A stretch of 63,684 bases of DNA, filler included. It is 5 parts of 5 records of this genome, joined end to end, with 100 filler letters (N's around TTAATTAATTAA, not from the genome) between each part and the next. Parts side by side here need not be neighbours in the genome. Positions count along the whole stretch, not along the records: positions 37,686 to 50,410 come from SRR31156797_12952; 4 more parts are not named here. One strand, written 5' to 3'. Shown piece by piece: positions 37,686 through 57,231 of this stretch. The position numbers and the translations under genes were made by a program. Each line of letters starts with the position of its first letter. Within the stretch, counting starts at the first letter, position 1. Below the pieces are notes generated by a model. That model saw nothing but the letters and a program-made list of their open reading frames with translations, did no database searches and was not told where the DNA came from.

Positions 37686-37719
37686 CTTTGGCCCTCGGAG
37701 AGCCGCCGGAGGCATCTTA

Positions 37720-39450
37720 ATGATCGAAAAGTATTATCAGAGGGAACTGAGCCATTTGCGTGAATTGGCGGTGGAATTTTCCAAGACCCACCCCGCGCTG
37801 GCTCCCATGTTGACCGGACCGGGTGCTGATCCTGATGTGGAACGGCTTCTGGAAGGCTCGGCATTTCTGTCCGGTATGATCAACCAGAAGCTGGATGATG
37901 AATTCCCGGAGATAGTACATGGTCTGGTGCAGCTTATTTTTCCGCACTATTTGCGGCCTATCCCTTCTACTACAATTGTTAAATTTACACCCAAACCAAG
38001 CTTGATGGAAAGTATCCGGGTTCCGGCGGGGGCACAAATAGGTTCTATTCCGGTCAGCGGTGCATCATGTATTTTTTCGACAACTTATGACGTGGATCTT
38101 CATCCGCTTTCCATCATCGATGTGGAACTGGTTAAAAGTGCAGGAACCTCCGGTACCCTGACTATCAATCTGGAATTGAATGGTCTTCCTCTGGATGAAT
38201 GGGAGAATTCCAGTTTGCGTTTCCATCTGACCGGTGATGCGGCCTCCGCCTCCATGCGCTATAAATTTTTATTCAATTACATCCGCGATATTCAGATTAG
38301 CGGTGAAGACGGAAGCTTGTGCGTACTGGGGAAGAGCAATTTCAAAGCTGTCGGTTTTGAGGATGAGGAAGCCCTGCTACCTTATCCCTCGCAATCTTTT
38401 CCGGGCTACCGAATTTTGCAGGAATACTTTATCCTGCCGGAAAAATTTCTTTTTTTTGAGATAACCGGGTTGGATAACTGGCGTAACCGGGGCAGCTCTG
38501 GAAAATTCAAGATCGTTTTGGATCTGGAAAAGGTTCCTCATACTTTCAACCGCTTTACCAAAGAGGATCTTTGCCTGTTCGCCACTCCGGCTATTAATTT
38601 GTTCAAGCGTGATGCCGAGCCAGTGATTCTGGATCATAAGCGCCCGGAATATCAGGTCCGTCCTTCGGGTGATTCCGGTGGCGATTATCAGGTTTACTCA
38701 GTGGATTCCGTGGTCGGTTATGTGCAGGGTACGGTGGAGGAAAAGCCGTACAAACCTTTCCATATGTTTAATCCTCAGGCCGGGGAAATGCCTGTCTATA
38801 CGGTGCACCACCGTCGTTCCCCGGTGCGGGATAAAACAGATATTTTTGTCTCTGTGGCTTATCCGGCGCAGGGAGATGAGCCTGTAACTGAAACCCTGTC
38901 TATGGCTCTGACCTGCACCAACGGCACCTTGCCGGAAAAGTTGCGTTACGGGGATATCAGCAAGCCCACCGGGACCTCTCCGGAGTTGGCTTCATTTGAA
39001 AATATCCGTCAGCCAACATCCCCGGTACAGCCTCCGCTGGGCAGGAACCTGCTTTGGCGGCTGCTTTCACATTTGTATTTGAACTATCTGTCCGTGGCTG
39101 ATGTGGAAAGTCTGCGGGCCATGGTTAAGCTTTACGTTTTTACCGATACCCGTGACCGGGGCGCGGTGGTGGCAAACACCAAAAGGGTGGACGCCATTTC
39201 CGGCATGGAGGTCAGCGAAGGAGACCGTCTGGTGCGCGGTCTGGTTATGCGTGGTCGGGAGATTAAGATGTCGCTTAGCTGTGACGGGTTTGCCAACAGC
39301 GGTGATCTCTATCTTTTTAGTTCGGTGATGAACCGTTTTTTTTCAGGCTATGCCTCGGTAAATTGTTTCACCCGGCTGACTGTTGAGGATACCTTAAACA
39401 AGGAGATCTACAAGTGGACTGCGATGATCGGAAACCGTCCGCTTCTGTAA
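37720..39450 (+). CDS. tssF: T6SS baseplate subunit TssF
   Basis: YYQRELSHLRE, DPDVERLLEG, PHYLRPIPS, LQEYFILPEKF, TPAINLF, WRLLSHL. Confidence 0.96.
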   Translation: MIEKYYQRELSHLRELAVEFSKTHPALAPMLTGPGADPDVERLLEGSAFLSGMINQKLDDEFPEIVHGLVQLIFPHYLRPIPSTTIVKFTPKPSLMESIRVPAGAQIGSIPVSGASCIFSTTYDVDLHPLSIIDVELVKSAGTSGTLTINLELNGLPLDEWENSSLRFHLTGDAASASMRYKFLFNYIRDIQISGEDGSLCVLGKSNFKAVGFEDEEALLPYPSQSFPGYRILQEYFILPEKFLFFEITGLDNWRNRGSSGKFKIVLDLEKVPHTFNRFTKEDLCLFATPAINLFKRDAEPVILDHKRPEYQVRPSGDSGGDYQVYSVDSVVGYVQGTVEEKPYKPFHMFNPQAGEMPVYTVHHRRSPVRDKTDIFVSVAYPAQGDEPVTETLSMALTCTNGTLPEKLRYGDISKPTGTSPELASFENIRQPTSPVQPPLGRNLLWRLLSHLYLNYLSVADVESLRAMVKLYVFTDTRDRGAVVANTKRVDAISGMEVSEGDRLVRGLVMRGREIKMSLSCDGFANSGDLYLFSSVMNRFFSGYASVNCFTRLTVEDTLNKEIYKWTAMIGNRPLL

Positions 39451-40454
39451 CTGGAAACCTGTTCGAAAAACCGACCGGGTATTCCTTTTTTCAGGCTCTA
39501 CGTCTGCTGCGGCTGCATTCGCATAACTGCACGGGCAAGGAGCTTGAAGAATTCTTTCGTGATCACCTACGGGTGCGTCCGCAGCTTTCCCTTGGTTTTC
39601 CGGCAACCGATCTAACCGACATTGAAGAGGAAGAACGGGAAGACGGCGATCTTTATCGTATCGAAGCTACTTTTCTGGGACTTTACGGTGCTTCCTCTCC
39701 GCTCCCGGTTTTTTATACTGAAGAATTGCTGGCCGAGGCTTCGGAAGACAAATCCGTTACCCGCGATTTCCTGAACATTCTTAATAACAACTCTTACATA
39801 CAATTTTTCCGGGCCTGGAGCCGTTCCCGGCTGATGGTTAAGGCTGTGGATGAGCAAGATAATTCCTGGCTGGAGCGTCTGGACAGTCTTCTCGGTTATG
39901 GTCACTACAAGGCTTTTTCCCATGTTCCGCCTGAATGCCGCCGTTATCGTCATATCGGTCTTTTGACCCAATATCCGCGAAGTGCGCTGGGACTTGAAAC
40001 CCTGCTCAAGGATTCCCTTAGGCATGGTGAAATTCATGTGGAGCAATGCGTGTTGCGCAAGGTCAAGATTCCCGAAGACCAGCGTTTTTGTCTTGGGCAA
40101 AATTCCAATGCGCTCGGTGAGAGGTCTTGGATCGGTGAGGAACTGGAAGACCGTAACAGTAAATTCGCAGTACACCTGCAGGGCCTTGATTCAGCTCGTT
40201 TTCACACATTGTTGCCCGGAACCGAGGGCGGGGATAAACTGGATAATTTGGTGCGTGGCTATCTGGTAGAGCCGTTCAAATATGATCTGGTTCTTGAAAT
40301 GAAGCCCGGCGAGGCCAACCCCGCAGTACTGGGGGGGGAACAATGGTCCGGTCTTGGCTGCGATACCTGGGTTTTTGCCGGAGAACATCTGGAATATGCA
40401 AAAGCGTCTTTTCCCAATAAAGGCGGACACATCCATGAGAGGTATGAAGCATGA
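39414..40454 (+). CDS. tssG: T6SS baseplate subunit TssG
   Basis: YSFFQALRLL, SLGFPATD, FLGLYGASSPLP; follows tssF. Confidence 0.94.
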   Translation: MDCDDRKPSASVTGNLFEKPTGYSFFQALRLLRLHSHNCTGKELEEFFRDHLRVRPQLSLGFPATDLTDIEEEEREDGDLYRIEATFLGLYGASSPLPVFYTEELLAEASEDKSVTRDFLNILNNNSYIQFFRAWSRSRLMVKAVDEQDNSWLERLDSLLGYGHYKAFSHVPPECRRYRHIGLLTQYPRSALGLETLLKDSLRHGEIHVEQCVLRKVKIPEDQRFCLGQNSNALGERSWIGEELEDRNSKFAVHLQGLDSARFHTLLPGTEGGDKLDNLVRGYLVEPFKYDLVLEMKPGEANPAVLGGEQWSGLGCDTWVFAGEHLEYAKASFPNKGGHIHERYEA

Positions 40455-43111
40455 TCAATGTAGACATAAGGAACCTTCTTTCAAAGCTGGACACCTTCTG
40501 CACCAATGCATTGCACAACGCAGCAGGTTTAAGTGTTTCGCTCAGCAATTATGAAGTTTCAGTGGAACATTTTTTTATCAAATGCATTGAGGAAGTGAAC
40601 AGCGATCTGCCGCTCATTTTCCGTCAATACGGTGTGGAAAATCCGCGAATTACCGCTGCGCTCACAGATGTGTTACAGGATTTCAAGACCGGTAATTCCG
40701 GTAAGCCCGTATTTTCGCCCATGCTGCTGGAACTTTTTGAGGATGCATGGCTTATTTCCTCGGTGGAGCTTGGCGAAACCCGTATCCGCTCCGGTTCTGT
40801 GCTTTTGGCCTTTCTGGGCAAACCTAATTTTTACGCTTCCGGCAATTATGCTGATCTGTTTTCAGCCATCAACCGCGAGATCTTGCTCAAGGAATTCTGG
40901 ACCGTAACCAAGGGCTCAGTGGAATATAAGATGCCTGCCGCTGCGCCGGGAGAAGCTGCTGCACCTGCCAAGGGCGAGGGCGGATTTATTGAGCGGTTCT
41001 GCATTGATTTCACAGCCAAGGCCCGTGAAGGCGGCATTGATCCGGTTTTTGGGCGTGATCCGGAAATGCGTCAGATGGTGGATATTCTTGCCCGTCGTCG
41101 TAAGAATAACCCTATTCTCGTGGGTGAACCCGGGGTGGGTAAAACTGCGGTCATCGAAGGTCTGGCCTTGCGTATTACCGAAGGGGATGTGCCGGAAATC
41201 TTAAACGATGTAACCCTGCTTGGTTTGGATATGGGCTTACTTGAAGCCGGGGCCGGGATGAAGGGTGAGTTCGAGAACCGACTTAAAGGTGTTATCGATG
41301 AGATCAAATCCAGCGAGACACCGATCATCCTGTTTATTGATGAAGCTCACACTCTGGTCGGTGCCGGAGGTTCTGCCGGGGGGGCTGACGCCGCCAATTT
41401 GCTTAAACCGGCACTTGCCCGCGGGGAGCTGAAAACATGCGCCGCCACCACTTGGACCGAGTATAAGAAATATTTTGAAAAGGACCCGGCACTTGCCCGC
41501 CGCTTCCAGCTGGTCAAGCTGGATGAGCCGTCCGTAGATACTTCGACTATCATCCTGCGCGGTTTGCGCGAAAGTTATGAAAAGGCTCACAACGTGATTA
41601 TCCGTGATGATGCCAACGTGGCTGCCGCTGTTTATTCCGACCGTTACATTACTGGACGATTCTTGCCGGACAAGGCCATTGATCTGCTGGATACCACTTG
41701 CGCGCGGGTAAAGGTTAATCTTTCGGCAAAACCCGGACGTCTGGAGGATTGTCAGCGCGTAGTGCAGGCCCTTGAACGTGAAAAGAAGGCTGTGGACCGG
41801 GATCGCAGTAACGCTGTCGAAGTGGATGAAGAGCATTACAAGGAATTGCTGGCTCAGATTGAATCCAAAAATACTGAGGCCGCAGAGATCAGCGAAAAGT
41901 GGCTCAAGGAAAAGGACGCCGCTCATGCTGTACTGGATGTGCGGGCGCAGATTCAGGAAGCCCGTAATGGTGAGTCGGACCAAGGTGATAATATAGACGA
42001 AGAAAATTATATCAAGCTTAAGGAAGAGCTGGACAAGGCTGATACTGTTTTAGCTGGACTTCAGTCCGATGATCCCATGGTCCAGATTGAGGTCACCCCC
42101 GATCTGGTGGGCCGTGTTGTTTCTGACTGGACCGGAATTCCGGTGGGTAAAATGGCCCGTGATGAGGCCGCCACTGTTGCAGACCTCGAAGAAAAGCTCA
42201 AGGTGCGCATTAAGGGGCAGGATCAGGGGCTTGGGGCTATTGCCGAGGTTATCCGCGCTTCCAAGGCCGGGATCAAGAATCCTGACCAGCCTATCGGGGT
42301 GTTCCTCTTGGTAGGTCCTTCCGGTGTGGGTAAGACCGAGACCGGACTTTCCTTGGCAGATCAGCTTTTCGGTGATGAGCGTTCCGTGGTCACCGTGAAT
42401 ATGAGTGAATTTCAGGAAAAGCACACTGTTTCAAGGTTGATCGGTTCGCCTCCGGGCTACGTTGGCTATGGCGAGGGCGGTATGCTCACCGAGGCTGTGC
42501 GTCGTCAGCCTTATTCAGTGGTTCTTCTGGATGAAGTGGAAAAGGCCCATTTAGATGTGATGAACACCTTTTATCAGGTCTTTGACAAGGGAGTGCTCAC
42601 CGATGGCGAGGGTAAGGATATCAATTTCAGGAACACTATTCTCATCCTGACTTCCAATCTCGGAACGGACGTCATTCAGGAAATGACTGCCAGTCTGGAT
42701 GCTGGTGACGAGATGCCCATGGACGCGGTTCTTTCCGCTGTGCGGCCCCTCCTTTCCCAGCATTTCAAGCCCGCGTTGCTGGCACGTATGAACGTTGTGC
42801 CTTACTTCAGCCTCAATCCTGAAGCCATGAAGATGATCACCCGCCTCAAGCTCGGCAAGCTGGAAAAGATGCTCCTTGCCAACAATAAGATGAAGTTGAG
42901 TTATGACGCTGGGGTCGTTGATCAGATTGCAGCTCGTTGTACCGAAGTGGAAACCGGAGCGCGTAACATTGAATATATCCTTAACGGCAATGTACTGCCG
43001 AAGATGTCAAAGGAAATCCTGCTGCATATGACCGAGGGCGGCATGCCTGAGGCTGTGCATCTGGGTGTGGACGAGGACGGTTCCTTTATCATGGAATTTT
43101 CCGCGGAATAA
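40451..43111 (+). CDS. tssH: T6SS AAA+ ATPase ClpV
   Basis: RRRKNNPILVGEPGVGKT, LKPALARGEL, GPSGVGKTET, NMSEFQEKHTVSRL, GARNI. Confidence 0.96.
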   Translation: MINVDIRNLLSKLDTFCTNALHNAAGLSVSLSNYEVSVEHFFIKCIEEVNSDLPLIFRQYGVENPRITAALTDVLQDFKTGNSGKPVFSPMLLELFEDAWLISSVELGETRIRSGSVLLAFLGKPNFYASGNYADLFSAINREILLKEFWTVTKGSVEYKMPAAAPGEAAAPAKGEGGFIERFCIDFTAKAREGGIDPVFGRDPEMRQMVDILARRRKNNPILVGEPGVGKTAVIEGLALRITEGDVPEILNDVTLLGLDMGLLEAGAGMKGEFENRLKGVIDEIKSSETPIILFIDEAHTLVGAGGSAGGADAANLLKPALARGELKTCAATTWTEYKKYFEKDPALARRFQLVKLDEPSVDTSTIILRGLRESYEKAHNVIIRDDANVAAAVYSDRYITGRFLPDKAIDLLDTTCARVKVNLSAKPGRLEDCQRVVQALEREKKAVDRDRSNAVEVDEEHYKELLAQIESKNTEAAEISEKWLKEKDAAHAVLDVRAQIQEARNGESDQGDNIDEENYIKLKEELDKADTVLAGLQSDDPMVQIEVTPDLVGRVVSDWTGIPVGKMARDEAATVADLEEKLKVRIKGQDQGLGAIAEVIRASKAGIKNPDQPIGVFLLVGPSGVGKTETGLSLADQLFGDERSVVTVNMSEFQEKHTVSRLIGSPPGYVGYGEGGMLTEAVRRQPYSVVLLDEVEKAHLDVMNTFYQVFDKGVLTDGEGKDINFRNTILILTSNLGTDVIQEMTASLDAGDEMPMDAVLSAVRPLLSQHFKPALLARMNVVPYFSLNPEAMKMITRLKLGKLEKMLLANNKMKLSYDAGVVDQIAARCTEVETGARNIEYILNGNVLPKMSKEILLHMTEGGMPEAVHLGVDEDGSFIMEFSAE

Positions 43112-43132
43112 TGAGCATGAGAGGGTAGTTTT

Positions 43133-45442
43133 ATGGCAGAAAATTCCAAGCCCAAGTTTGTTTTTGAGTCCAAGGGTGCGGATAAGAACACCTTCAGTGT
43201 GGTCCGTTTCAAGGGCACCGAAGGATTGTCGACCATTTACCGCTTCAGTATCATGCTGATTTCGGAGAAGAATGACCTCGACATAGGTTCTATCCTCCAG
43301 AATCCAGCGGAGTTCACCATTAAGCGTGATGACGGGGATATCCCGTTCAAGGGTATGCTCAGTTCTTTTGAACAGCTCCATCAGGTTGGGAAGATGTGTT
43401 TTTACCGTGCGGAACTGGTTCCGAAACTCTGGTGGGCCACTCTGACCCATTGTAACCAGATTTTTTTGAATGAAAATGCGCAGGGATTCCTCGCTGATGT
43501 GCTTAAGAAAGCTGGCCTCAAAGAAGGTTTGAGTTTTGATTTTAAGCTGCAAGGATCTTATCCCTCTTGGGAATACATTTGTCAGTACGATGAATCCCAT
43601 TTCAATTTTGTCTCCCGCTGGATGGAGCGGGACGGCATGTATTACTATTTTGAACAGACCGATCAGGGCGAGAAGATGGTTATTACCGATACCCACATCT
43701 CCCATTCGCCCATGAAGGAAGGCACCAGCCTGACCTATTCCCCGCCCAGCAATCTTGACCACACTCATCGTGATGAGATCGTCAAGAATTTCATGCTCAA
43801 ACAGCAGCCTCTGCCAAAGAAAGTGCTGCTCAAGGATTACAATTACCGCAAGCCCAGTCTTGAAATGAAAGCCGAAGCCATGGTTTCGCAGCAGGGCATG
43901 GGTGAGATTTATATTTATGGAGAACATTTCAAGACTCCGGGGGAAGGGAATACGCTGTCCCAAATCAGGGCGCAGGAATTCCTCTGCCGTGAGAAGGTAT
44001 TCCATGGCGTATCCACAGTGCCATACATCCGCACTGGATATATTTTCGAGTTGAAGGACCATTATCGTCAGGATTTTAATCAGCGTTACCTGACCACCGA
44101 AGTTGTGCACGAGGGAAGTCAGGAGGCTTATCTTGTTTCCGGTCTGGGCTTGAATCTGGCTGAAGATGCGGATCGTCTTTATTACCGCAATTCTTTTACC
44201 TGCATACCCGCAAACACACAGTTTCGTGCCGAGCGCAAGGCTGTGAAGCCAAAGTTTTCCGGGACCATTAATGCCAAGGTCGATGCCTCTGGTAGCGGAC
44301 AGTATGCCGAGCTGGACGGGGAGGGACGTTACAAGGTGATCATGCCTTTTGATGAGTCCGGGCGCAGCGGCGGGAAGGCCACGACATGGTTGCGTATGGC
44401 CCAACCCTACGGAGGTTCCAACCACGGCATGCATTTCCCGTTGCATAAAGGTACTGAGGTTTTGATTACTTGTGTTGAGGGAGACCCTGACAGACCCATT
44501 ATCCAGTCTGCGGCTCCCAACCCTGAAAATCCAAGTCTGGTCAAGGATGCCAATCAGACCAAATGCGTAATCGTTACCGGAGGACAGAACCTGTTTCATA
44601 TTCAGGATAAGCAGGGCAGTGAGGGGATGCATCTTAAGACTCCTAAAGATAATACCTATGTGCGTCTTGGTTCAGCCGCAGCAGAACCCTCAGGCGGCGA
44701 AAGTTCAATGACTGAGGACAAGGTTAAAGAGATTGCAGACGAGCAGATTGAAGCGAAAAAGAAAGAAGAAAGTCTGGCTCTGTCCACCGAAGGTAATATC
44801 AAAATTAACGGCAAGAATATTGCCAGCTATATTCTTGGGAATGAGAGTAAGGTTGTTCTCGGATTTTCTCAGCTTGTAAATATCGGTAATGATACCAAGT
44901 TCTTCGGTGCTCTCAAGGAAGACATCGTTGTGGGCATGGAGACCGGGATAAAACTCGCCCTGCTCAATGAAATCACTGCCACAAAGAATGGTCTGGTGGC
45001 GGGTACGGCCCTTAAAGCCGAGACTGAACGTGAAGAATTAATCGCCGATCATCATCGGATGAACATAGATATGACCAAGCTTAACGCTACTTGTGCTGAA
45101 ATCAATGGAGATTTGAGCACTATCCGTGAAGCACACACTAATCTAGCCATGGACTTTGATGACTTGAAAGGAGCAACCGCACAACTGGCAGGGGAAGCCA
45201 GCAAGCTTGCCGGACAGGTTGATGAAGTTTGGGGAGAAATGGATACCGTGGCCGGAAACCTGACACATCTCTGCGGAGAAGTAACAGCATTGGCTGGTGA
45301 GGATAATAAAATTGTCGGGGTGATGGCTAAGAGTATCGGTGAGTCTACGAAGCTGATCGGGACCAGTTCCAATGTAACAGCCGAAACAAGTCAAATCTCA
45401 GGTGAGATGAACAATATTGCCGGCCTCATTAACAATATTTAG
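43133..45442 (+). CDS. vgrG: T6SS spike protein VgrG with an extended repetitive C-terminus
   Basis: EGLSTIYRF, QYDESHFNFVSRWMERDGMYY, GMHFPLHKGTEV, GDPDRPII; C-terminal 8-mer then 7-mer repeats. Confidence 0.94.
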   Translation: MAENSKPKFVFESKGADKNTFSVVRFKGTEGLSTIYRFSIMLISEKNDLDIGSILQNPAEFTIKRDDGDIPFKGMLSSFEQLHQVGKMCFYRAELVPKLWWATLTHCNQIFLNENAQGFLADVLKKAGLKEGLSFDFKLQGSYPSWEYICQYDESHFNFVSRWMERDGMYYYFEQTDQGEKMVITDTHISHSPMKEGTSLTYSPPSNLDHTHRDEIVKNFMLKQQPLPKKVLLKDYNYRKPSLEMKAEAMVSQQGMGEIYIYGEHFKTPGEGNTLSQIRAQEFLCREKVFHGVSTVPYIRTGYIFELKDHYRQDFNQRYLTTEVVHEGSQEAYLVSGLGLNLAEDADRLYYRNSFTCIPANTQFRAERKAVKPKFSGTINAKVDASGSGQYAELDGEGRYKVIMPFDESGRSGGKATTWLRMAQPYGGSNHGMHFPLHKGTEVLITCVEGDPDRPIIQSAAPNPENPSLVKDANQTKCVIVTGGQNLFHIQDKQGSEGMHLKTPKDNTYVRLGSAAAEPSGGESSMTEDKVKEIADEQIEAKKKEESLALSTEGNIKINGKNIASYILGNESKVVLGFSQLVNIGNDTKFFGALKEDIVVGMETGIKLALLNEITATKNGLVAGTALKAETEREELIADHHRMNIDMTKLNATCAEINGDLSTIREAHTNLAMDFDDLKGATAQLAGEASKLAGQVDEVWGEMDTVAGNLTHLCGEVTALAGEDNKIVGVMAKSIGESTKLIGTSSNVTAETSQISGEMNNIAGLINNI

Positions 45443-45468
45443 GCAATAATATCTAGCTCCGGAGTATC

Positions 45469-48400
45469 ATGAAGATATTTAAGGAAAAGCAGCATTCCTT
45501 TTATCCGCGCCCATTGGGAATCGGAGATAAGTTTTACCTCAGTGTCGGGATCATGGCTTTCTTTGACCTTAATGATCCCGATAATCTGCTTGATGAACAG
45601 GAACTCTGGAAGAGCGTACCCACGCAGCTTGGACCCAAGCCGATCATTGATCAGGGCGTGCCCAAGCCACGTGGTGAGTTTTTGGTAAGCGGTTCATGCT
45701 TTGCACCGCGCGGGCAGTCCCGTCCGGCTTCGCAGGTGCAGGTTCGCGTTGGAGAAAAGGAAAAAACGCTTAATATCTTCGGGGACCGTTATTGGAAAAA
45801 CGGGTTGATCACTGAACCGGAACAGTTCGTGGAAATGCCTGTGGTCTGGGCAAATTCGTTTGGTGGGCCGGATTACGCGAGGAATCCGCTTGGTAAAGGC
45901 ATGAGCAAGGTTCCCATGCATGACGGTTCTGATGCCGTACCCCTGCCTAATGTTGAACTGGAGCAGCTGATCGGTTCGCCGTCCCAGAAACCGGTCCCGG
46001 CGGGGTTTGGGCCGCTTGATCTTATGTGGCCGCAGCGGGCCCGGAAAAATGGTACTTATGATGAAAAATGGAAGAATGAACGCTGGCCATTTTTTCCCGA
46101 TGATATGAATTACGAGTTTTTCAATACAGCCAGCGAAGACCAGTTCATGGGTGGTTATTTCAAGGGCGGTGAGTCGGTACTGATCAAAAATATGCATCCT
46201 GATTTCCCGCTTATTGAAAGTTCGTTGCCACGCTTACGCATGCGTTGCTTTGTTACTGTTAATAATAATTTCAAACCTCATACTTTTCCGGTGGGACCGC
46301 TGCCATCCCACCAGATTCACGAGGATGAGGAGTTCCGCGAGGTTTCCACCCGTCTGGAAACAGTATGGTTTTTTCCTTCGATCATGCGCGGACTCCTCAT
46401 CTATCGCGGAACTACTGAAGTTGTGGACGACGAAGGCGCGGATGTGTTGCGGGTCATGATTCGCCACGAAGCGCAGGACGAGGAACCAAAATCCATTGAG
46501 CACTATCGGGATTTACAAATCACGCTTCTTGATCGCGGGGTGGACATTGATATGTCTAAGGCGGAAGAAGCAATGCAGAAGGCCAAAAAATCCCTGCTAA
46601 AAATTAAGAATATTCCCAAGTTTGCGGATGAAATTCGTCAGAAAGCTCTCGGTAATCGCCCTTCCATGCCCATGCGGGACCCAGAGGAGGTTGTGGCCGA
46701 TGCTCAGAAGATGGTTGCCGGACATTACAAAACATTGAATAGCCTGGAAGGCATGGCCCGTAAGGCCCATGCTGAAAACGGTCATTTGGTGGAAATCAAT
46801 CTCGGTGTCTTCGATAAGTTTCGGGGCAAGATTGAAGAACTTGAAAAGAAGTTGACAGCGACCGGGGCAAAGTTCTCCGCCACCAAGAAAAAGCTTGAAG
46901 CATCCCGCAAGGCTGCGGTCAAAGAGGCTTCGACTAAACTGAAAGGGATTAAGCCTGAATATCTCAAGCAAAACGGACTTGACCCTGATGAACCTATTGC
47001 TGCTGAATTTCCCTTTCATAAAAAAGTTAACCCGTGGCATGACCGGGGTTTTCCACTTGTCGCGCGCTGGCGCAGGGCGTTGGAAAATGACCGGGAAACT
47101 ATGAAAAAGCTCACTGACTTAGGAATTGAACGTAAGACTATCAAGCGCATGTGGCTGGGAATGAATTCTGAAGTCCTAAGCGAATACCCGGCGGATTGGG
47201 GGCTGGACGGTGAGGATAAATTTATCGTTCCCGCGGGGCTAGTGCTGCCCCGTTTCGATGGTCCGGTGCTCAATCATATCAAGAGTAATCCGGGTGGATT
47301 TGCAGAGGGTGAGAAGTCGTTAGTTCCCGGCTCAAATGAAAATCCACTTTTCCTGCCCAGCTCGACGCTCATCGATCTGCCGACCTTGCCTGCGGCTGCA
47401 GCGGCCCCGGTGGTTTGCGTGGCTGATGAGTTGCAGGCTCTGTTCATGGAGCAGGAAGTGGGCGATTTTTGTTCCATCCTGACCCTTGAATCACCCAAGG
47501 ATAAACCGGGTGAGGATGCGGCCAAGGAATTGAAAAATGCTCTCGCTGTTTTGATTGTTCAGCCGGAGAAATGGAACAAAGATGGTGAGCTTAGGAAGGT
47601 ATGGAGCGGCTGGCAGTCCGCACTTAAAACCGCTCAGCCATTGGAGCTTGAACACGGAAGCTCTGTCTTTGAATCCAGCAAAAAGGGCAGTGATATCCGT
47701 CAATGGGTGTTGGATCATTTACCTGAAGAGCATGGGGCAGAGCATTCAATTTCCATGTCCATGCCGCAAAAAGGTAGTCCTCCTGACGAGAATTTCCTGA
47801 AAGGTTTCATGCCTCCGTTCCCCGATGTGAAGGGCTTGGCGAAAGGGATTCATGCTGAGGTCCAGAAGAGTTTGGAAGCTAAGTTCGAGCCGATTAAGGT
47901 GAAACAGGAAGCCATGCTTGAAAAGATGCGCGAAGCAGCGACCAAGTATGCCAAATACGGCGCAGACCCTTCAAAAGTAGTGCTTGAACCGACAAGACCG
48001 AAGCCGACAGCTACGCAAGTGGGCAAGGATGCTGCCGCTAAGATCAGGGCCCGGGCCGCAGAGCTTAAACAGCGCAATTTGCTGACCCCGGAAGCTGCGC
48101 AGAAAATGGAAAGTGAAGCTTCAAAAGTGGAAAAAACAGGTGCAAAGCTTGATGCCCAGAACGTAAAGTTACTCAAGAAATTTGAGGCTAAGAAGATCGA
48201 ACTTGCCGAAGGACTAAAGAAGCTTGAAGCCAAAGAACTGCCCGATGGAGCAAAAGCTAAGCTTGCCGAGCACGGATTAAGTGCTGATTCCCTGCGTGCG
48301 CTAAGTCGTGAGGAAGTTCAACGCTATCATGAACAGGGCAGATCTCTGGTGGGCGCAGTGCTCAGTGGAGTGGACCTTTCTGGCCTTGATCTCAGTGGAG

Positions 48401-49299
48401 CGGACTTGAGCAAATGTCAGCTTAAGGGGACGAATTTTAAGGGATCAATTCTGGATAATGCCAAGTTGGTCCAAGCTTTGGGCATGAAAGCCGATTTCAG
48501 CAAGGCTTCCCTTAAAAGGGCTGAACTTGGACGCGGATTGTTTAACAAAGCGATCTTCAAGGAAAGTGATCTCAGCGAAGCCATTGCTGCTCAGGCCATT
48601 TTCAAGGGTGCGGATTTCTCCAAAGCTGTGCTGCATAACGCCAATTTTGACATGGCTATACTCGAAAAAACAGACTTCACCGAAGCAGACCTTAAGGGCG
48701 CACTCATCAATATGTGCATGATCAGCGGCAAGGCCGATCATGCCGATTTCAGTAAATCAACCATCAAGAAATCCATCTTCAAATCATCATCGCTCAGCGA
48801 AGCTGGTTTCAGTGAAGCCTCAGTGAACGAGTCCCTCTTTAACGACGTTGATGCCCACAAGACTGATTTCACAGATGCTAATCTGGATAAATTGCGTACC
48901 GGACGAAATTCCAATTTCAAGGATTCGGATTTCCGTAACGCTACCTTGCGTGGTGCGGCCCTGCGTGAATCAGATTTTACCGGATCAGATTTCCGGGGTG
49001 CGGATTTTGAGAACGGGCTGGTGGATAACTCGCAATTGGTCCGCGCCAACCTGAACGGTGTTTCCGCGAAGGGCGCACGTTTTACCAAAAGTAATCTTGA
49101 AGCCGCTTCCATGCGGGCAGCAAATGTCCACATGGGCGGTATGCGCAAGGCTCGTTTGGTGGATACCGATTTACGCGGATCCAACCTTTTTGCCGTGGAT
49201 TTCTACAAATCCGTGCTCGGCGATACCCGTTTCGAGGCTGCCAATCTCAAACGCAGCCAGTTGCACGGTAAACTTGAACTGCTGGATGACGACTCATGA
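45469..49299 (+). CDS. DUF2169 T6SS adaptor with C-terminal pentapeptide repeats and a large central insertion (TagAB-like)
   Basis: N-terminal PKPRGEFLVSG, FGDRYW, NPLGKG, PAGFGP, GTYDEKW (DUF2169); from ~48340 A(D/N)LxxAxF-type pentapeptide repeats. Confidence 0.88.
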   Translation: MKIFKEKQHSFYPRPLGIGDKFYLSVGIMAFFDLNDPDNLLDEQELWKSVPTQLGPKPIIDQGVPKPRGEFLVSGSCFAPRGQSRPASQVQVRVGEKEKTLNIFGDRYWKNGLITEPEQFVEMPVVWANSFGGPDYARNPLGKGMSKVPMHDGSDAVPLPNVELEQLIGSPSQKPVPAGFGPLDLMWPQRARKNGTYDEKWKNERWPFFPDDMNYEFFNTASEDQFMGGYFKGGESVLIKNMHPDFPLIESSLPRLRMRCFVTVNNNFKPHTFPVGPLPSHQIHEDEEFREVSTRLETVWFFPSIMRGLLIYRGTTEVVDDEGADVLRVMIRHEAQDEEPKSIEHYRDLQITLLDRGVDIDMSKAEEAMQKAKKSLLKIKNIPKFADEIRQKALGNRPSMPMRDPEEVVADAQKMVAGHYKTLNSLEGMARKAHAENGHLVEINLGVFDKFRGKIEELEKKLTATGAKFSATKKKLEASRKAAVKEASTKLKGIKPEYLKQNGLDPDEPIAAEFPFHKKVNPWHDRGFPLVARWRRALENDRETMKKLTDLGIERKTIKRMWLGMNSEVLSEYPADWGLDGEDKFIVPAGLVLPRFDGPVLNHIKSNPGGFAEGEKSLVPGSNENPLFLPSSTLIDLPTLPAAAAAPVVCVADELQALFMEQEVGDFCSILTLESPKDKPGEDAAKELKNALAVLIVQPEKWNKDGELRKVWSGWQSALKTAQPLELEHGSSVFESSKKGSDIRQWVLDHLPEEHGAEHSISMSMPQKGSPPDENFLKGFMPPFPDVKGLAKGIHAEVQKSLEAKFEPIKVKQEAMLEKMREAATKYAKYGADPSKVVLEPTRPKPTATQVGKDAAAKIRARAAELKQRNLLTPEAAQKMESEASKVEKTGAKLDAQNVKLLKKFEAKKIELAEGLKKLEAKELPDGAKAKLAEHGLSADSLRALSREEVQRYHEQGRSLVGAVLSGVDLSGLDLSGADLSKCQLKGTNFKGSILDNAKLVQALGMKADFSKASLKRAELGRGLFNKAIFKESDLSEAIAAQAIFKGADFSKAVLHNANFDMAILEKTDFTEADLKGALINMCMISGKADHADFSKSTIKKSIFKSSSLSEAGFSEASVNESLFNDVDAHKTDFTDANLDKLRTGRNSNFKDSDFRNATLRGAALRESDFTGSDFRGADFENGLVDNSQLVRANLNGVSAKGARFTKSNLEAASMRAANVHMGGMRKARLVDTDLRGSNLFAVDFYKSVLGDTRFEAANLKRSQLHGKLELLDDDS

Positions 49300-50357
49300 G
49301 CATACTGAATCGCGAACAGATATTTACGGCCATTGCCGACAACCAGACTTTGCGGGACATTGACCTTTCCGGGGCCGATCTTTCCGGAGCGGATCTGACT
49401 GGAGGTCGTTTCCATAATGTGAAGTTACATGGGGTCGACCTTTCCGGGGCTAATATCCTCAAAACAGGGTTCAAGAATTGTGAATTTAACGAGGCTCGTT
49501 TTGATGGAACTGACCTGACTAAGGTTAATCTGCAAGGGATGAGCTTTGCCGGGGCTTCTTTCAAGGAAGCAAAAATTCATATGGCAACGCTTCAGAAAAC
49601 AGATTTCAGCGGGGCCGACCTGACCGGGGCGGAACTCACATGGTCCATGGCTCAGCATTCCAGCTTCAAGGGTGCGAACATGCGTTCCATGAAGATCGTC
49701 AAGACTGTGCTTTCTCATTCTAACTTGGACGGGGCCGACTTCTTCGGGGCTAATTTGGATCGGGTGGTCTGTAACGGTTCTTCCTTCAAAGGAACCAAGT
49801 TTAAGGGCGGGACCTATTTCAAGATGATGATGCGTGAGGCCGACTTGGAGAATCAGGATATTTCCGGGCAGCTTTTTTCGCAGGTTCTGTTGGACAGTGC
49901 TAACCTGCGTGGGGCCAATCTTGCCGGAGCTGACATGACCATGTCCAATTTTATGGGTGCGGATTTGAGCGGAGCCAACCTCTCAGGTGCTGTCTTGCGT
50001 AGTTGTATGCTCAGCGGGGCTGTCCTGCGCGAAGCTGATTTCAGCCGTGCCGATCTGACCAAGGCTTACTTAGGCGGGGCGGATGCAACCATTGCTGACT
50101 TTTCCGGGGCGACCATGGTTCATGCAATTTTCAACAAAGCTATCTGTCAGGCCACAAAGTTTGTCGGAGCCAGTTTGCAGCATTCTGATTTTTCGCATGC
50201 TGACCTCACTCATGCTGATTTCAGCAGGGCTTCCATGTATCGGGCTAAGCTGCATCGTATAATCGAGAAGGATACTCGTTGGGATGGAGCGTCACTGATT
50301 ATGCTGCAAGGCACGGACAAAGATATGGAGGAGGCCGAAAACTGGGTGCATAGTTAA
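49296..50357 (+). CDS. Pentapeptide repeat protein (TagB-like)
   Basis: Continuous DLSGA/DFSGA/NLSGA repeats; ATGA overlap with the upstream gene. Confidence 0.9.
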   Translation: MSILNREQIFTAIADNQTLRDIDLSGADLSGADLTGGRFHNVKLHGVDLSGANILKTGFKNCEFNEARFDGTDLTKVNLQGMSFAGASFKEAKIHMATLQKTDFSGADLTGAELTWSMAQHSSFKGANMRSMKIVKTVLSHSNLDGADFFGANLDRVVCNGSSFKGTKFKGGTYFKMMMREADLENQDISGQLFSQVLLDSANLRGANLAGADMTMSNFMGADLSGANLSGAVLRSCMLSGAVLREADFSRADLTKAYLGGADATIADFSGATMVHAIFNKAICQATKFVGASLQHSDFSHADLTHADFSRASMYRAKLHRIIEKDTRWDGASLIMLQGTDKDMEEAENWVHS

Positions 50358-50358
50358 A

Positions 50359-50410
50359 AATGCCTTCGGCGACCCTGCCGGGGGGCCTTAAACCCTTTTG
50401 GAAAAGGGTT
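50359..50410. repeat. Probable REP-like palindromic intergenic repeat (truncated at segment end)
   Basis: AATGCCTTCGGCGACCCTGCCGGGGGCCTTAAACCCTTTTGGAAAAGGGTT with perfect hairpin AACCCTTTT-gg-AAAAGGGTT; recalled as a Desulfovibrionaceae-type repeat (not verified). Confidence 0.55.
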
Positions 50411-50510
50411 NNNNNNNNNNNNNNNNNNNNNNNNNNNNNNNNNNNNNNNNNNNNTTAATTAATTAANNNNNNNNNNNNNNNNNNNNNNNNNNNNNNNNNN
50501 NNNNNNNNNN
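50411..50510. other. Artificial contig linker
   Basis: N runs around TTAATTAATTAA. Confidence 0.98.
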
Positions 50511-52598
50511 AACTCCTTGGATTTCAACCAGTATCGGGGTTTGGTTGCCGAAAGAATCGAAGACCTGACCGGCCGAAAACTGACAATCGAAGGAGATTTG
50601 AACCTCAATATTTCCTTGAATCCCAGTCTTCGCCTTGAAGCCGTTTCATTGGCCAACGCGGATTGGGGGTCGCAGCCCGAAATGTTGCGGATATCCCGGC
50701 TTGATGCCGCCGTCGACCTGCTTCCGTTGCTGACCGGCGAGGCTCGGATTTCGCACATCCGGATTTCGGGGTTCGATCTGTTTGTCGAGACGGATGCCGA
50801 TGGCCGGGGAAACTGGCTGTTCGAAACCGCCGCCGTGCCGAAAGACGAAAGCCCCGAAAGCCCGGAAACCGCTAAATCGCCGTTTGTCCCGATCTTCGAG
50901 GAAATCGTGCTCGAAGACATGAATGTTGCATTCCTGAACGGAAAAAACGGCAACTCCTACGGAACGAAAATCCAGTCGTTGACCGCGCGGCAGGCCAGAC
51001 GGGGATTGCCGATCGATTTGGCAGGCAATGGCACTATCGGCGGCTCGCCTTACGAATTGACGGGAATTGTCGGGCCGATTGCGGCGTTGGTCGAAGGCAA
51101 GGACTATCCCATCGATTTGAAACTGTCCGCCTTCGACAGCGAAGTCGGTATCGATGGAATCCTGGCAAATGGAACGGTGGACCGAGGACTGGTCTTTGGC
51201 CTGTGGATGAAATCAGCCGATCTCGGAAAATCCGTTGATTTGGCCTCGGTGGCTATCCCGGACCTGGAAGGGACAAAGGCCCCGAATGTTCCGTTTGCTG
51301 CCTCGGCATCGCTGGGGCGAACCGAAGGACGCCTCGAACTGATCAATCTTAAAGCCAATTTGGGTGACAGCGATATTTCAGGAAAAGGTGTCGTCAATCT
51401 GGCTGAAGATCGACCGAAATTGAATGCGGAAATTGCTTCCAAACGATTGGATTTCGCAAAGCTATTTCCGGCAATGCCTGCCGAAAAGCCAGGGAACCAA
51501 CAAACGAAATCCGGCGGCGTCGACAATGTTGAAAAACCCGCCAGGATTTTCCCCGCCGATCCGCTGCCATTGGGTGGCTTGCGGGCCATCGATGCCGAAA
51601 TCGCCCTGAGGATCGAGTCGATCCGGCTTCCAAACGGCATCGGCATCGAGAAGGCTGTTATCAAGGCGGATCTGGAACGCGGCCGTTTGACTTTGGCGCC
51701 TATTCAGGCGGAAGTCGGTGGTGGGCGCATAGACGGCCGGATCGAACTGGATGGGCTGACCGATACGGCCAGTCTGTTGGTTTCCGCGACCGGCAAACAG
51801 GTCGGGGTCGGACAACTGCTCGGACAACTCGAACTGAGCGGCATTGTCGAAGGCGGTGCCGCCGATCTGAAGTTGGAGGCGAAAGGAAAGGGCGCCTCCG
51901 TTCGCGACGTCATGGCCGGATTGACCGGCGGAATAACGCTCGAAGTCGGCGAGGGACGCATCCACAATTCGGCGCTCGACATTGCCGGTGCCGATGTGTT
52001 CATGCAGCTGCTGGGGGCGTTGAACCCGGCTTCAACGAAGGAGGATTTTTCGATCCTGTCGTGTGCCGTCATCAAATTCGGCATCGTGGACGGACTGGCC
52101 AAGGCCAATAAGGGCATCGCGCTGGAAACCGACAAGGTCAATGTGATCGGCGACGGTGTTGTCGATCTTAAAACCGAGAAGATCGACTTTGCCGTGAAAC
52201 CCGAAACGCGCGAAGGAACCGGCCTGAATCTTGGTGGAGTTGCCGCCGGACTGGTGCGCGTCAGGGGAACCTTGGCCGAACCCGCCATCGGCATCGACGA
52301 AATCGGCGCCGCCAAAACGGCGGCGTCCGTCGGCGCGGCGTTGGCCACCGGCGGGTTGTCGTTGCTGGGAGAGGCGCTGATGTCGCGCACGACCCAGGAC
52401 CGTCATCCTTGTTTGACCGCGCTCGGTAAAACACCGCCCAACGAAACACCTCAAAAATCGAAAACCGCAACGGAACAAGCCCCTGCATCCCAGGCAAAAA
52501 CGCCGGGATCTCCCATCGATAAAATGGGCGAGGATGCCAAGGGTTTGTTCAAGGGCGTCGGCGATGCGTTCGGCAAACTGTTGGGCGGCAAGAAGTAG
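50511..52598 (+). CDS. AsmA family protein (5' truncated)
   Basis: DFNQYR...TGRKLTIEGD, LANADWGS, GRGNW, LGDSDISG, LSCAV...GDGVVDLKTEKID. Confidence 0.85.
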   Translation, partial: NSLDFNQYRGLVAERIEDLTGRKLTIEGDLNLNISLNPSLRLEAVSLANADWGSQPEMLRISRLDAAVDLLPLLTGEARISHIRISGFDLFVETDADGRGNWLFETAAVPKDESPESPETAKSPFVPIFEEIVLEDMNVAFLNGKNGNSYGTKIQSLTARQARRGLPIDLAGNGTIGGSPYELTGIVGPIAALVEGKDYPIDLKLSAFDSEVGIDGILANGTVDRGLVFGLWMKSADLGKSVDLASVAIPDLEGTKAPNVPFAASASLGRTEGRLELINLKANLGDSDISGKGVVNLAEDRPKLNAEIASKRLDFAKLFPAMPAEKPGNQQTKSGGVDNVEKPARIFPADPLPLGGLRAIDAEIALRIESIRLPNGIGIEKAVIKADLERGRLTLAPIQAEVGGGRIDGRIELDGLTDTASLLVSATGKQVGVGQLLGQLELSGIVEGGAADLKLEAKGKGASVRDVMAGLTGGITLEVGEGRIHNSALDIAGADVFMQLLGALNPASTKEDFSILSCAVIKFGIVDGLAKANKGIALETDKVNVIGDGVVDLKTEKIDFAVKPETREGTGLNLGGVAAGLVRVRGTLAEPAIGIDEIGAAKTAASVGAALATGGLSLLGEALMSRTTQDRHPCLTALGKTPPNETPQKSKTATEQAPASQAKTPGSPIDKMGEDAKGLFKGVGDAFGKLLGGKK

Positions 52599-52607
52599 AA
52601 CGGGCAT

Positions 52608-53351: not shown

Positions 53352-53421
53352 AACAATACCGTTGCAACGGTACATGGCGAATGGGAGTTACGGTACTTCG
53401 CCGATAACCAGGGAGGAAAAA

Positions 53422-54204: not shown

Positions 54205-54230
54205 ATTTCCAATCCGGATTTTGCTCCAAT

Positions 54231-54261
54231 CCCGGCGGGAGGAAATCCCGCCGGGTTTTTT
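54231..54261 (+). terminator. Intrinsic terminator
   Basis: CCCGGCGGGA-ggaaa-TCCCGCCGGG followed by TTTTTT. Confidence 0.85.
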
Positions 54262-57230: not shown

Positions 57231-57231
57231 C

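Follow-up and report, generated by a model that had tools for sequence, protein, structure and literature searches.

In the class III Tvp proteins TvpAB/TagAB, exemplified by Serratia marcescens SMDB11_2247 and Burkholderia TagAB-5 (BPSS1504), an N-terminal DUF2169 domain is joined by a helical linker to C-terminal pentapeptide repeats, an arrangement that the gene analysed here shares and that also goes by the name 'synteny type C multidomain DUF2169' in the available parts of PMC13373197, PMC11883445 and PMC13584744. The mechanism of DUF2169/TagAB/TvpAB proteins is a recent addition to the literature: they cap the VgrG-PAAR tip and possibly fill the baseplate cavity, and in the portions of these sources at hand the published classes consist of DUF2169, helices and pentapeptide repeats. 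For the function of class III Tvp we follow the accessible text of PMC13373197, in which baseplate cavity filling is put forward as a proposal only. In class III Tvp/TagAB loci, as in the one analysed here, vgrG immediately precedes the gene and a stand-alone gene for pentapeptide repeats (tvpB) comes next; genes for DUF3540 (tvpC) and DUF4150 then follow, as they do in the relatives of the long protein described below.

We analysed a stretch of DNA of 63,684 nucleotides (the window), which N runs, linker sequence and GC steps resolve into five contigs joined by N44-TTAATTAATTAA-N44 linkers. Because the window is concatenated from contigs, true genomic context exists only within positions 37686-50410, the contig that carries the gene of interest (Table 1). 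On this contig the long gene sits in a T6SS gene cluster, and the pentapeptide-repeat gene after it gives an order that matches both its relatives and the canonical loci. The contig stops at 50410, 53 bp past tvpB, its homology to relatives ending at 50351-50410, and a tblastn search for the relatives' downstream genes gave no match in the window. In 3/3 related complete genomes, genes for DUF3540 (TvpC) and DUF4150 (PAAR-like) come directly after tvpB, so that the full class III Tvp order there is vgrG, long gene, tvpB, DUF3540 and DUF4150. An identical copy of the contig is present in run X1 at a depth of 275, with the whole gene covered without joints; this X1 contig is possibly the source of the window DNA and so provides no independent read support. 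Judged by its sequence, the gene encodes a lengthened class III Tvp/TagAB spike chaperone of a T6SS, with an insert of ~230 residues in the helical linker.

Table 1. Features of the contig and of the long protein (positions along the window).
Feature	Position	Strand	Evidence or detail
Contig with the finding	37686..50410	.	12,725 bp, about 50% GC; N runs, linker sequence, GC steps
tssF (baseplate)	37720..39450	+	Pfam T6SS_TssF, E=1.7e-156
tssG (baseplate)	39414..40454	+	Pfam T6SS_TssG, E=7.9e-86
clpV/tssH AAA+ ATPase	40451..43111	+	Pfam AAA_2, AAA_lid_9, ClpB_D2-small
vgrG spike, 769 aa	43133..45442	+	Pfam Phage_GPD E=4.3e-75, Phage_base_V
Long TvpAB/TagAB-like accessory protein, 1276 aa	45469..49299	+	
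DUF2169 (TvpA) domain, residues 23-313	45535..46407	+	Pfam PF09937, E=1.3e-85, 287.8 bits vs cut-off 25
Basic helical region 1, residues 341-522	46489..47034	+	pI 9.5, no Cys; AlphaFold secondary structure, charge, sequence
Primase-like catalytic-core homologue, residues 523-752	47035..47724	+	phmmer, hhalign, AlphaFold, Foldseek, ESM Atlas
A652, TOPRIM catalytic Glu position	47422..47424	+	Column counts, PDB profile alignment
P699-E700-K701, TOPRIM DxD motif position	47563..47571	+	Column counts
S732, position of Asp in primases' GKDPGEA motif	47662..47664	+	Column counts
Linker + helical region 2, residues 753-940	47725..48288	+	AlphaFold secondary structure, charge
Pentapeptide-repeat (PRP/PPR) domain, residues 941-1276	48289..49296	+	Pfam Pentapeptide PF00805 E=8e-41, Pentapeptide_4
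tvpB-like stand-alone pentapeptide-repeat protein, 353 aa	49296..50357	+	Pfam Pentapeptide, E=1.7e-62

The long protein is about 400 residues longer than canonical TagAB/TvpAB, with the linker divided into two helical stretches, both basic, so that the domain order reads DUF2169, basic helices, dead primase core, basic helices and pentapeptide-repeat domain (Pfam repeats from about residue 950 to 1270). Alignment of two canonical proteins (846 and 896 aa) to the long protein is confined to its residues 1-356 and 911-1265, and an HMM of the family domain did not match either of them (-0.7 and -1.3 bits). None of 205 plasmid records covered at least 80% of the query. An AlphaFold model of residues 341-940 (pLDDT 90.5, pTM 0.78) predicts helices at residues 405-437, 446-492, 787-828, 848-868 and 874-920 on either side of the insert, which itself is composed of an N-terminal subdomain (about 523-640) and a TOPRIM-fold subdomain (about 645-752). 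The helical flanks have a pI of about 9.5 versus 5.1 for residues 523-752. We found no Pfam or NCBIfam match to a zinc-ribbon family in the 1276-aa protein, and no Pfam or NCBIfam match to a helicase or helicase-binding C-terminal part; the core is instead followed by helices and pentapeptide repeats.

An earlier note made from the DNA alone had proposed that this segment is a primase-like module lying between two helical regions of a 1276-aa DUF2169/pentapeptide protein. Positions 47035-47724 do translate to exactly the 230 residues it quoted, and the flanks are indeed helical and basic. The profile search that it recommended, with the segment alone against Pfam, returned no primase or Toprim match: the segment matches no Pfam family at E<=10 and no NCBIfam family, hits one PHROG at E=0.18, and in a search of PDB sequences recovers two unrelated chains at E of about 1.7. 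Single-sequence library scans thus miss the domain. By contrast, an exhaustive phmmer search of 1.8 billion proteins with the same segment yielded 310 proteins at E<=1e-3, with zinc-ribbon/Toprim primases at E of about 1e-12 to 1e-6 (among them 2e-12). We sampled ten matches from the lower part of this list and checked them with Pfam. Primase zinc-ribbon domains were present in 9/10, the tenth being a fragment of the DUF2169 family; seven had a Toprim-family match at E<=0.01, mostly under Pfam's own cut-off, and three were primase-PolA fusions. Identity of the segment to phage/mobile-element DnaG-type primases is about 26-34%.

Profile and structure comparisons lead to the same place. The consensus of 32 related primases (LGWNP, WGL, LPxGLVIP, RYxxVxGS, VxVESELDA, QEAGD, KPD, LDxDxAG, GKDPGEA, DLRxW) aligns column by column with the segment and bears out the motif order that the earlier note had given from recall. 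Searched against the PDB, the 32-primase profile finds 2au3 (1.9e-18), 5vaz (8e-8), 1eqn/1dd9 (3e-6) and T7 gp4 1nui (6e-6), with its VESELDA Glu and DxD falling on the DnaG catalytic residues, and hhalign of the family profile (138 sequences) with a primase profile (36) gives Prob 100 and E=1.3e-52 over 218 columns. An AlphaFold model of the segment, built from P0001 and 77 DUF2169-family rows with no primases in the input, has a pLDDT of 96.5 and a pTM of 0.91. Foldseek with this model found 21 PDB matches at E<=1e-3; the 16 that were listed are all DnaG cores or human Twinkle (TMq 0.46-0.66, the DnaG cores with prob 1.00), a search that the note had recommended. Against the viral library BFVD there were 42 matches at E<=1e-3, those with names being phage primases, and the top ESM Atlas clusters (score 0.96) are labelled 'primase DnaG/twinkle TOPRIM'. 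A fold search with the 600-residue model again returned DnaG cores and nothing matching the helices. Sequence, profile, structure and language-model searches therefore agree on a DnaG/phage-type primase fold, and residues 523-752 are genuinely homologous to the catalytic core of phage-type DnaG-like primases.

A mobile-element source, also suggested before, fits the IMG/VR scan, in which viral contigs are rich in the nearest active relatives of the domain. A tblastn search with the primase P0154 hit 12 named phage and 10 plasmid records, mostly through zinc-ribbon-only matches. Among the cluster names for nine primases and a 368-aa protein, P0129, there are only two, 'DNA polymerase' and, for P0129, 'hypothetical protein'. 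We had considered P0129 as a stand-alone dead primase and rejected it: its K-rich helical start resembles the linker of the DUF2169 family, so we read it as part of a longer family protein and left it out of the primase set.

The active site of the segment is eroded. At the TOPRIM catalytic Glu column, which the PDB profile alignment places over the Glu of 'VEGY' in Aquifex and Pseudomonas DnaG, 35/35 primases have E and the long protein has A652, while the 138 family members have mainly A (70), P (21), S (9) and G (9), with E in six and other residues in the rest. The first DxD column is D in 35/35 primases versus P in 115 and D in 3 of the 138; the second is D in 34/35 primases versus K (39), G (37), E (10), D (10) and others in the family. 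The Asp of GKDPGEA, present in 33/35 primases, is replaced by T (65/138), N (32) or S (17) in most of the family, with D in 12 and other residues in the remainder. Counted over the four metal-ligand columns, acidic residues number four in 33/35 primases and three in the other two; in the family there are none in 99/138, one in 34, two in 5, and three or four in none. Two residues of the N-terminal subdomain have changed as well: the RGL Arg (R/K in 35/35 primases) is L or M in 118/138 family members, and the RY Tyr (Y/F in 35/35) is D or E in 81/138. The median pI of the family domain is 4.96 versus 8.87 for primase cores, and its net charge is about -9 versus about +3. With its TOPRIM Glu and DxD gone, and with them the third acidic ligand and the N-terminal subdomain's Arg and Tyr, the domain is predicted to be catalytically dead.

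These columns largely uphold what had been read from the sequence by eye. The catalytic Glu position does read A, and the absence of a zinc finger agrees with the lack of a zinc-ribbon family match and of Cys in residues 341-522. The coordinates given for the motif VCVADELQA (47410-47439) span ten codons (VVCVADELQA) rather than nine. The DxD motif is eroded as claimed, but its reading as QPE was misplaced, since the aligned positions P699/K701 (P-E-K) lie one residue to the right.

Loss of catalysis has not been accompanied by loss of the domain. Estimates of dN/dS for the segment are 0.061-0.148 (7/8 pairs with finite dS), compared with 0.045-0.076 for DUF2169 and 0.045-0.065 for the PRP domain, all of them rough values because most pairs have a dS close to saturation (about 1 or higher). 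By these estimates the primase-like domain is under purifying selection, in line with the earlier suggestion that it had been kept. Nine segment positions are invariant in a 30-sequence full-length alignment (W523, H524, W562, G564, P594, F596, S622, G665 and W715), and H524, F528, W562 and F596 are conserved specifically in the family, as are G527, R535, D653, P676 and P699. Nor is the insert peculiar to this assembly: we found 82 homologues with the same architecture, the best 120 of 308 matches to the DUF2169 region are nearly all 1209-1303 aa long, and 16/201 sampled genomes of the order encode the segment within ORFs of 1235-1327 aa. A scan of genome contigs with the segment gave eight close loci only. 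Family proteins that carry the domain measure roughly 1210-1330 aa and keep it throughout, down to about 25-30% identity and across several phyla, including many anaerobes. The 138 family rows are cluster representatives (90% or 50% identity) that are not independent and include several close Maridesulfovibrio relatives. In a quick, unrooted tree a single branch (SH-aLRT 100) splits 46 family rows from 35 primase rows, which does not contradict a single origin of the domain.

Since the catalytic residues and the zinc finger have been lost yet the domain is conserved, the fold of a replication enzyme seems to have found new use as a building block. We think it likely that the exapted, catalytically dead primase core serves the spike chaperone as a module for structure or protein binding, a function that we infer. 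A different role, in which the dead core still binds nucleic acid or NTP/(p)ppGpp and acts as a sensor coupling spike loading to the state of the cell, would seem unlikely. The DnaG active site accepts (p)ppGpp as a ligand, and the fold recovered by Foldseek is that of a nucleotide- and ssDNA-binding enzyme. The family has also retained the GS of RYxxVxGS (G in 126/138, S in 134/138) and, in 71/138 members, the RIRR Arg; E654, Q662, E663 and D666 near the old active site are conserved in both family and primases, so a residual metal or ligand site is possible. Yet of the four acidic metal ligands no family member has more than two, hydrophobic or acidic residues have taken the place of the conserved Arg and Tyr, the charge and pI differ from those of primases as given above, and the zinc finger for template recognition is absent. 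The loss of metal ligands and of conserved basic residues, together with the acidity of the domain, speaks against binding of nucleic acid, nucleotide or (p)ppGpp, and a scaffold role appears favoured.

That the protein simply tolerates the insert as a relic, which would separate the helices as inert filling and could be exchanged for any globular domain of like size, also strikes us as improbable. The catalytic residues have decayed, and in the accessible part of PMC13373197 canonical TagAB/TvpAB work without a primase-like domain; against this, the dN/dS of the segment is similar to that of the functional DUF2169 and PRP domains, some of the nine invariant positions are family-specific, and the domain has been retained at low identity over several phyla. 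Less probable still is a part in a delivered effector, for example a primase decoy that disturbs replication in the target cell: secretion of TvpAB and TvpB was never detected in Serratia (PMC13373197), the helicase-binding C-terminal domain of DnaG-type primases is missing, and the contig, cut at 50410, shows no immunity-like gene. What speaks for it is that in the same source class III Tvp goes with PAAR proteins that are small and carry no effector domains, so the toxic activity of class III Tvp clusters is often unassigned. We give almost no credence to chance resemblance, to misassembly or to an artefactual gene fusion. Contigs were joined to make the window, and the only run with the stretch may be its own source, but the architecture occurs in complete genomes and many independent assemblies, the E-values reach 1e-12 (phmmer) and 1e-52 (hhalign), and a single contig spans the gene without joints at the depth given above.

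For the preferred reading, a dead core kept as a module of the spike chaperone, we propose the following mechanism. A primase core would have been captured once, would have lost catalysis and would have been kept as a rigid, non-enzymatic module that makes no primers. Judging only from the pTM of the 600-residue model and charge complementarity, the core probably packs against the two basic helical arms. It may then make the TvpAB-TvpB cap larger or alter its shape, this cap being what keeps the PAAR-like tip in place first on TvpC and later on VgrG; the core would thereby fill more of the baseplate cavity or offer a docking surface for a partner. As a tentative extension, which we hold to be somewhat doubtful in its entirety, domestication of a phage primase core on one occasion may have founded an undescribed 'long' subclass of Tvp, common among anaerobes such as sulfate reducers. 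Here an acidic dead-enzyme head would lock onto two basic helical arms, and head and arms together would make up a rigid cap or docking piece needed by the machine for spike loading or as a baseplate checkpoint.

What is new here is a large unannotated DUF2169 subfamily whose extra domain can be named as a catalytically dead phage-type primase core. We found no description of this architecture in the literature searched; Appendix Figs S11-S12 of PMC13373197, which cover other phyla including Thermodesulfobacteriota, might show the long form, as might the supplement of PMC11883445. The family would offer a clear-cut example of an enzyme turned scaffold, exapted from a mobile-element gene into a host machine. 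For the T6SSs of anaerobes, which have hardly been studied, it provides a defined part for deletion, mutation or pull-down. It also illustrates how exhaustive sequence search and structure search recover a domain missed by Pfam and NCBIfam. If the tentative extension above is true, this would be the first case in which the fold of a replication enzyme serves as a structural component of a secretion nanomachine.

Set against known primases, the core has the same fold and motif order as the phage/mobile-element DnaG-type enzymes, in which a Zn_Ribbon_Prim or CHC2 finger is combined with Toprim_2 and some members are fused to family A DNA polymerase; its relatives of solved structure are Aquifex DnaG (2au3), E. 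coli DnaG (1dde/1eqn) and the T7 gp4 primase (1nui). Positions common to primases and the segment include W523, G552, G564, W577-G578, P588, G590, P594 and G621-S622, and further E654, Q662-E663, G665-D666, W715, R744 and W746. Unlike DnaG-type primases, the core of the long protein lacks a zinc finger and a helicase or helicase-binding part, is acidic rather than basic, has the Glu, DxD, GKD Asp, Arg and Tyr replaced, and forms part of a secretion-system protein. With Foldseek the lowest E-value (6.6e-5) belongs to the N-terminal primase-like domain of the human mitochondrial helicase Twinkle (7t8b/7t8c), a DnaG/T7-type primase without zinc finger or primase activity that is likewise kept within a larger machine. 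To our knowledge, a spike chaperone of the TvpAB type has no known link to nucleic acids. Twinkle's domain, however, stays in a replication helicase and acts on DNA, whereas the host of the core described here is a secretion-system chaperone.

Translation of window positions 47035-47724 yielded 230 residues (523-752, hereafter the segment, P0001) within the DUF2169/pentapeptide ORF, reproducing the residues quoted in the earlier note. A Pfam search of the segment alone, as that note had suggested, matched no family, nor did NCBIfam; PHROGs gave one match (E=0.18) and PDB sequences two unrelated chains (E ~1.7). Homology came instead from exhaustive phmmer and profile searches. With the segment as sole query, phmmer run against 1.84 billion representatives revealed 310 proteins scoring E<=1e-3, of which 91 reach <=1e-10 and 33 reach <=1e-30. 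When 221 matched proteins were sorted by phmmer with five pieces of the query, most had flanks of the DUF2169, helical or pentapeptide type while 55 matched the middle segment only. Ten lower-ranking middle-only matches (E 2e-12 to 1e-6) were scanned with Pfam: nine carry primase zinc ribbons (Zn_Ribbon_Prim and/or Zn_ribbon_DnaG), seven have a Toprim-family match at E<=0.01 (above Pfam's cut-off in only one) and three also contain a fused family A DNA polymerase. The remaining match was rejected as a primase because it is a piece of a DUF2169/pentapeptide family member. P0195, P0208 and P0216, which rank among the closest active relatives, are proteins of ~900-980 aa that combine a zinc ribbon and a primase core with a family A DNA polymerase (and 3'-5' exonuclease); one zinc ribbon/primase/polymerase fusion is named 'DNA polymerase [Gemmatimonadota bacterium]'.

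The consensus of 32 primases (alignment A2) reads LGWNP, WGL, LWLPxGLVIP, RYxxVxGS, VxVESELDA, QEAGD, KPD, LDxDxAG, GKDPGEA, DLRxW, the motif order given in the earlier note. The A2 profile matches the solved DnaG primases of Aquifex (2au3, 1.9e-18), Pseudomonas (5vaz, 8e-8) and E. coli (1eqn/1dd9, 3e-6) as well as T7 gp4 (1nui, 6e-6), placing the VESELDA Glu on the 'VEGY' Glu and LDxD on 'DGD' of the DnaG structures. We then compared 138 middle domains of the family of long DUF2169/pentapeptide proteins (one match covering query residues 5-225; partial or split matches excluded) with 36 primases of at least 320 aa in which the domain begins no earlier than residue 100. Local hhalign of the two profiles gave a probability of 100% and E=1.3e-52 over 218 columns, with 31% identity between aligned sequences.

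Structure prediction agrees with these searches that the segment has the primase/TOPRIM fold, as had been proposed. From an alignment of the segment and 77 full-length DUF2169-family proteins (A3), with zero primases, AlphaFold2 returned a model with mean pLDDT 96.5 and pTM 0.91. Foldseek found 21 PDB matches at E<=1e-3, and the 16 listed are all DnaG catalytic cores (Aquifex, E. coli, P. aeruginosa, M. tuberculosis, B. subtilis, S. aureus) or human Twinkle, at probability 1.00 and TMq 0.46-0.66. The named ones among 42 viral-library matches (E<=1e-3) are phage DnaG-like primases or primase-helicases, and the ESM Atlas feature search was headed, at 0.96, by 'primase DnaG/twinkle, TOPRIM' clusters (Toprim_2, mostly viral). 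A model of residues 341-940 from the same family alignment (pLDDT 90.5, pTM 0.78) places long helices on both sides of the fold, in keeping with the helical flanks described earlier. The pI of the window protein is 9.5 in residues 341-522, 9.5 in 801-940 and 5.1 in the core; medians for 30 family members are 9.5 and 8.1 (helical regions) and 4.9 (core). The pTM and charges suggest that the acidic core packs on basic arms.

Despite this fold, the active site appears to be gone. We aligned the 138 family domains jointly with 35 primases (P0129 was excluded as a family fragment). Replacement of the TOPRIM catalytic Glu, by A652 in the window protein, was borne out. The DxD motif is lost as well, but the aligned columns read P699 and K701 rather than the QPE first reported. 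Of the four ligand positions (Glu, D, D, D), all four are acidic in 33/35 primases and three in 2/35, versus none in 99 family members, one in 34, two in five and more than two in zero (n=138). The Arg column of RGL is R/K in all 35 primases versus L or M in 118/138 family domains, and the Tyr column of RY is Y/F in all 35 versus D or E in 81/138; the RIRR Arg, present in 35/35 primases, is kept in 71/138. The claim that the zinc finger is absent also stood: no zinc ribbon was detected in the 1276-aa protein, and residues 341-522 contain zero cysteines. Charge differs too: the family domain, with a median pI of 4.96 and a net charge of -9, is acidic, and the primase cores, with a median pI of 8.87 and net +3, are basic. 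Common to both is a skeleton of W523, G552, G564, W577-G578, P588, G590, P594, G621-S622, E654, Q662-E663, G665-D666, W715, R744 and W746. A motif within it, E-L-x-A ... Q-E-x-G-D, adjoins the lost Glu and is about equally conserved in family and primases.

Features of the window and of the 1276-aa protein, with residues of the joint alignment
Feature	Position	Strand	Basis or content	Primases (n=35)	Family (n=138)
Contigs	1-26236, 26337-37585, 37686-50410, 50511-57130, 57231-63684		N runs		
Linkers N44-TTAATTAATTAA-N44	26237-26336, 37586-37685, 50411-50510, 57131-57230		paired 44-N runs		
TPR/CHAT gene, 823 aa	35004-37475	+	TPR repeats, C-terminal CHAT (caspase-like) domain; low-GC contig 26337-37585		
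T6SS contig, 12,725 bp	37686-50410		tssF, tssG, clpV, vgrG, 1276-aa gene, 353-aa pentapeptide-repeat gene		
ORF, 1276 aa	45469..49299	+	translation		
DUF2169	residues 23-313		Pfam, E=1.3e-85		
Long helices	residues 405-437, 446-492, 787-828, 848-868, 874-920		AlphaFold2, predicted		
Pentapeptide repeats	residues ~950-1270		Pfam		
TOPRIM Glu	A652			E 35/35	A70, P21, S9, G9, E6, T6, rest scattered
Asp of ELDA	Q656			D 34/35	Q68, E42
DxD first	P699			D 35/35	P115
DxD second	K701			D 34/35	K39, G37, E10, D10
Asp of GKD	S732			D 33/35	T65, N32, S17, D12
E-L-x-A ... Q-E-x-G-D	residues 654, 662-666 (47428-47430, 47452-47466)			E31, Q28, E23, G28, D29	E102, Q123, E125, G125, D127

The genomic context has to be read within one contig. 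GC varies widely from contig to contig (~28-32%, 50%, 57-63%, 36-39%), which makes it likely that the pieces stem from more than one organism, and because the window is a chain of separate contigs, gene neighbourhoods across linkers are meaningless. The upstream CHAT/TPR gene, unrelated to the T6SS genes, and the downstream AsmA gene both lie on other contigs. The T6SS contig ends 53 bp (50358-50410) past tvpB, the pentapeptide protein gene; homology with eight related loci breaks off at this end (50351-50410), and tblastn found no match to the relatives' downstream genes anywhere in the window. In all three related complete genomes, DUF3540 and DUF4150 genes directly follow tvpB, and each has a single DUF2169 gene (ORF 1281-1285 aa, segment 75-83% identical); PF05488 PAAR had no match in these three. 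In the related loci L001 (9434-10479) and L004, tvpC (DUF3540) encodes 207-211 aa, and the DUF4150 PAAR-like protein has 134 aa. The end of the contig at 50410 probably accounts for the absence of tvpC and the PAAR-like gene from the window. An identical 12,725-bp contig in one public run, with word depth 275 and no joints over 45300-50400, a span that takes in the whole gene, may itself be the source of this DNA and is not independent support; that comes from many other assemblies with the identical domain order.

Nei-Gojobori comparison of the window gene with the related loci L001-L006 (8 pairs, one saturated; dS ~1 or more in most) gave dN/dS of 0.061-0.148 for the segment, 0.045-0.076 for DUF2169 and 0.045-0.065 for the pentapeptide domain, with 0.10 for the segment in the least saturated pair, L004-L005. 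These values and the recurrence of the architecture indicate that the insert has been kept, as the earlier note held, and is not unique to one assembly. Annotated as Maridesulfovibrio sp., the top protein matches share 88% identity with the window protein over residues 500-780. The architecture was seen in 82 word-index matches, and among the best 120 of 308 DUF2169-region matches all but five are 1209-1303 aa long, two of the five being marked partial. Sources include Maridesulfovibrio, Pseudodesulfovibrio, Desulfonatronum, Desulfocurvibacter, Desulfonauticus, Desulfotalea, Syntrophus, Deferribacter, Celerinatantimonas, Halochromatium, Thiodictyon and Hyphomicrobiales. An even sampling of the relatives' order, 201 genomes in all, gave 34 with a segment match (E<=1e-5); 18 places in 16 genomes lie in ORFs of 1235-1327 aa, and 23 places in ORFs of 161-614 aa are taken to be ordinary primases. 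Two long-form genes lie ~6-9 kb apart in G032:C44 (9436-10098, 18178-18876) and G020:C18 (172969-173622, 179222-179707), and P0053 and P0070 form such a pair on one Syntrophus contig, which suggests duplicated spike-chaperone modules.

In a quick unrooted ML tree, one branch (SH-aLRT 100) divides 46 family rows (the window protein and 45 random of the other 137) from 35 primases. The tree is compatible with a single capture of the primase core. Cellular DnaG has the catalytic residues too, so activity would be the ancestral state and its loss derived. Uncultivated viral genomes commonly carry members of the primase clade: 278 of 312 IMG/VR pattern matches encode relatives, the best 52% identical to the primase relative P0154.

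What might such a core do? According to PMC13373197, the PAAR-like tip in Serratia is enclosed by TvpAB and TvpB, at first on a TvpC trimer and later on VgrG; Hcp secretion requires both proteins, which are themselves unsecreted, and they were suggested to occupy the baseplate cavity if PAAR has no effector, with the helical region surrounding the beta-prism. By homology, the window protein would take the TvpAB role in a class III Tvp complex, and its dead primase core sits inside the corresponding helical region. Primer synthesis and nucleic-acid or nucleotide binding are argued against because the metal ligands, Arg/Tyr and zinc finger are lost and the charge is acidic. Given the conserved E654, E663 and D666, a retained ligand site keeps a small probability. 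The best-supported reading, with function inferred throughout, is that the core acts as a rigid, non-catalytic module of the cap that may provide bulk, shape or a docking surface.

The earlier note took the protein as a candidate undescribed system, and the full-text literature searched on DUF2169, TagAB and type VI secretion with primase, Toprim, DnaG or pentapeptide gave no account of the domain; 'primase' and 'toprim' are absent from the main text of PMC13373197. A Ralstonia study (preprint and published version) joining type VI secretion, Toprim and DUF2169 was rejected, its Toprim being a topoisomerase of a mobile element.

The relatives' gene order is that of class III Tvp or 'synteny type C' (vgrG, tvpAB, tvpB, tvpC (DUF3540), PAAR-like (DUF4150)) as set out in PMC11883445 and PMC13373197, and by four of the defining features the window protein is a TvpAB/TagAB chaperone. 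A tblastn search of PLSDB with the whole protein returned 205 records, none with at least 80% query coverage. An Escherichia albertii plasmid encodes vgrG, an 846-aa DUF2169 protein, a pentapeptide protein, DUF3540 and DUF4150, and a Caballeronia plasmid encodes a DUF2169 protein of 896 aa. These canonical proteins align to residues 1-356 and 911-1265 only, so the long form has ~400 extra residues, comprising the dead primase core and longer helical arms; the family-domain HMM (filters off) scored -0.7 and -1.3 bits on them. Compared with primase/TOPRIM families, the segment shares fold and homology but lacks the zinc finger, Glu and DxD and, judged by these residues, is not a primase or TOPRIM family member in the functional sense. 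Human Twinkle, whose inactive primase-like domain is the top structural match, offers the nearest analogy.
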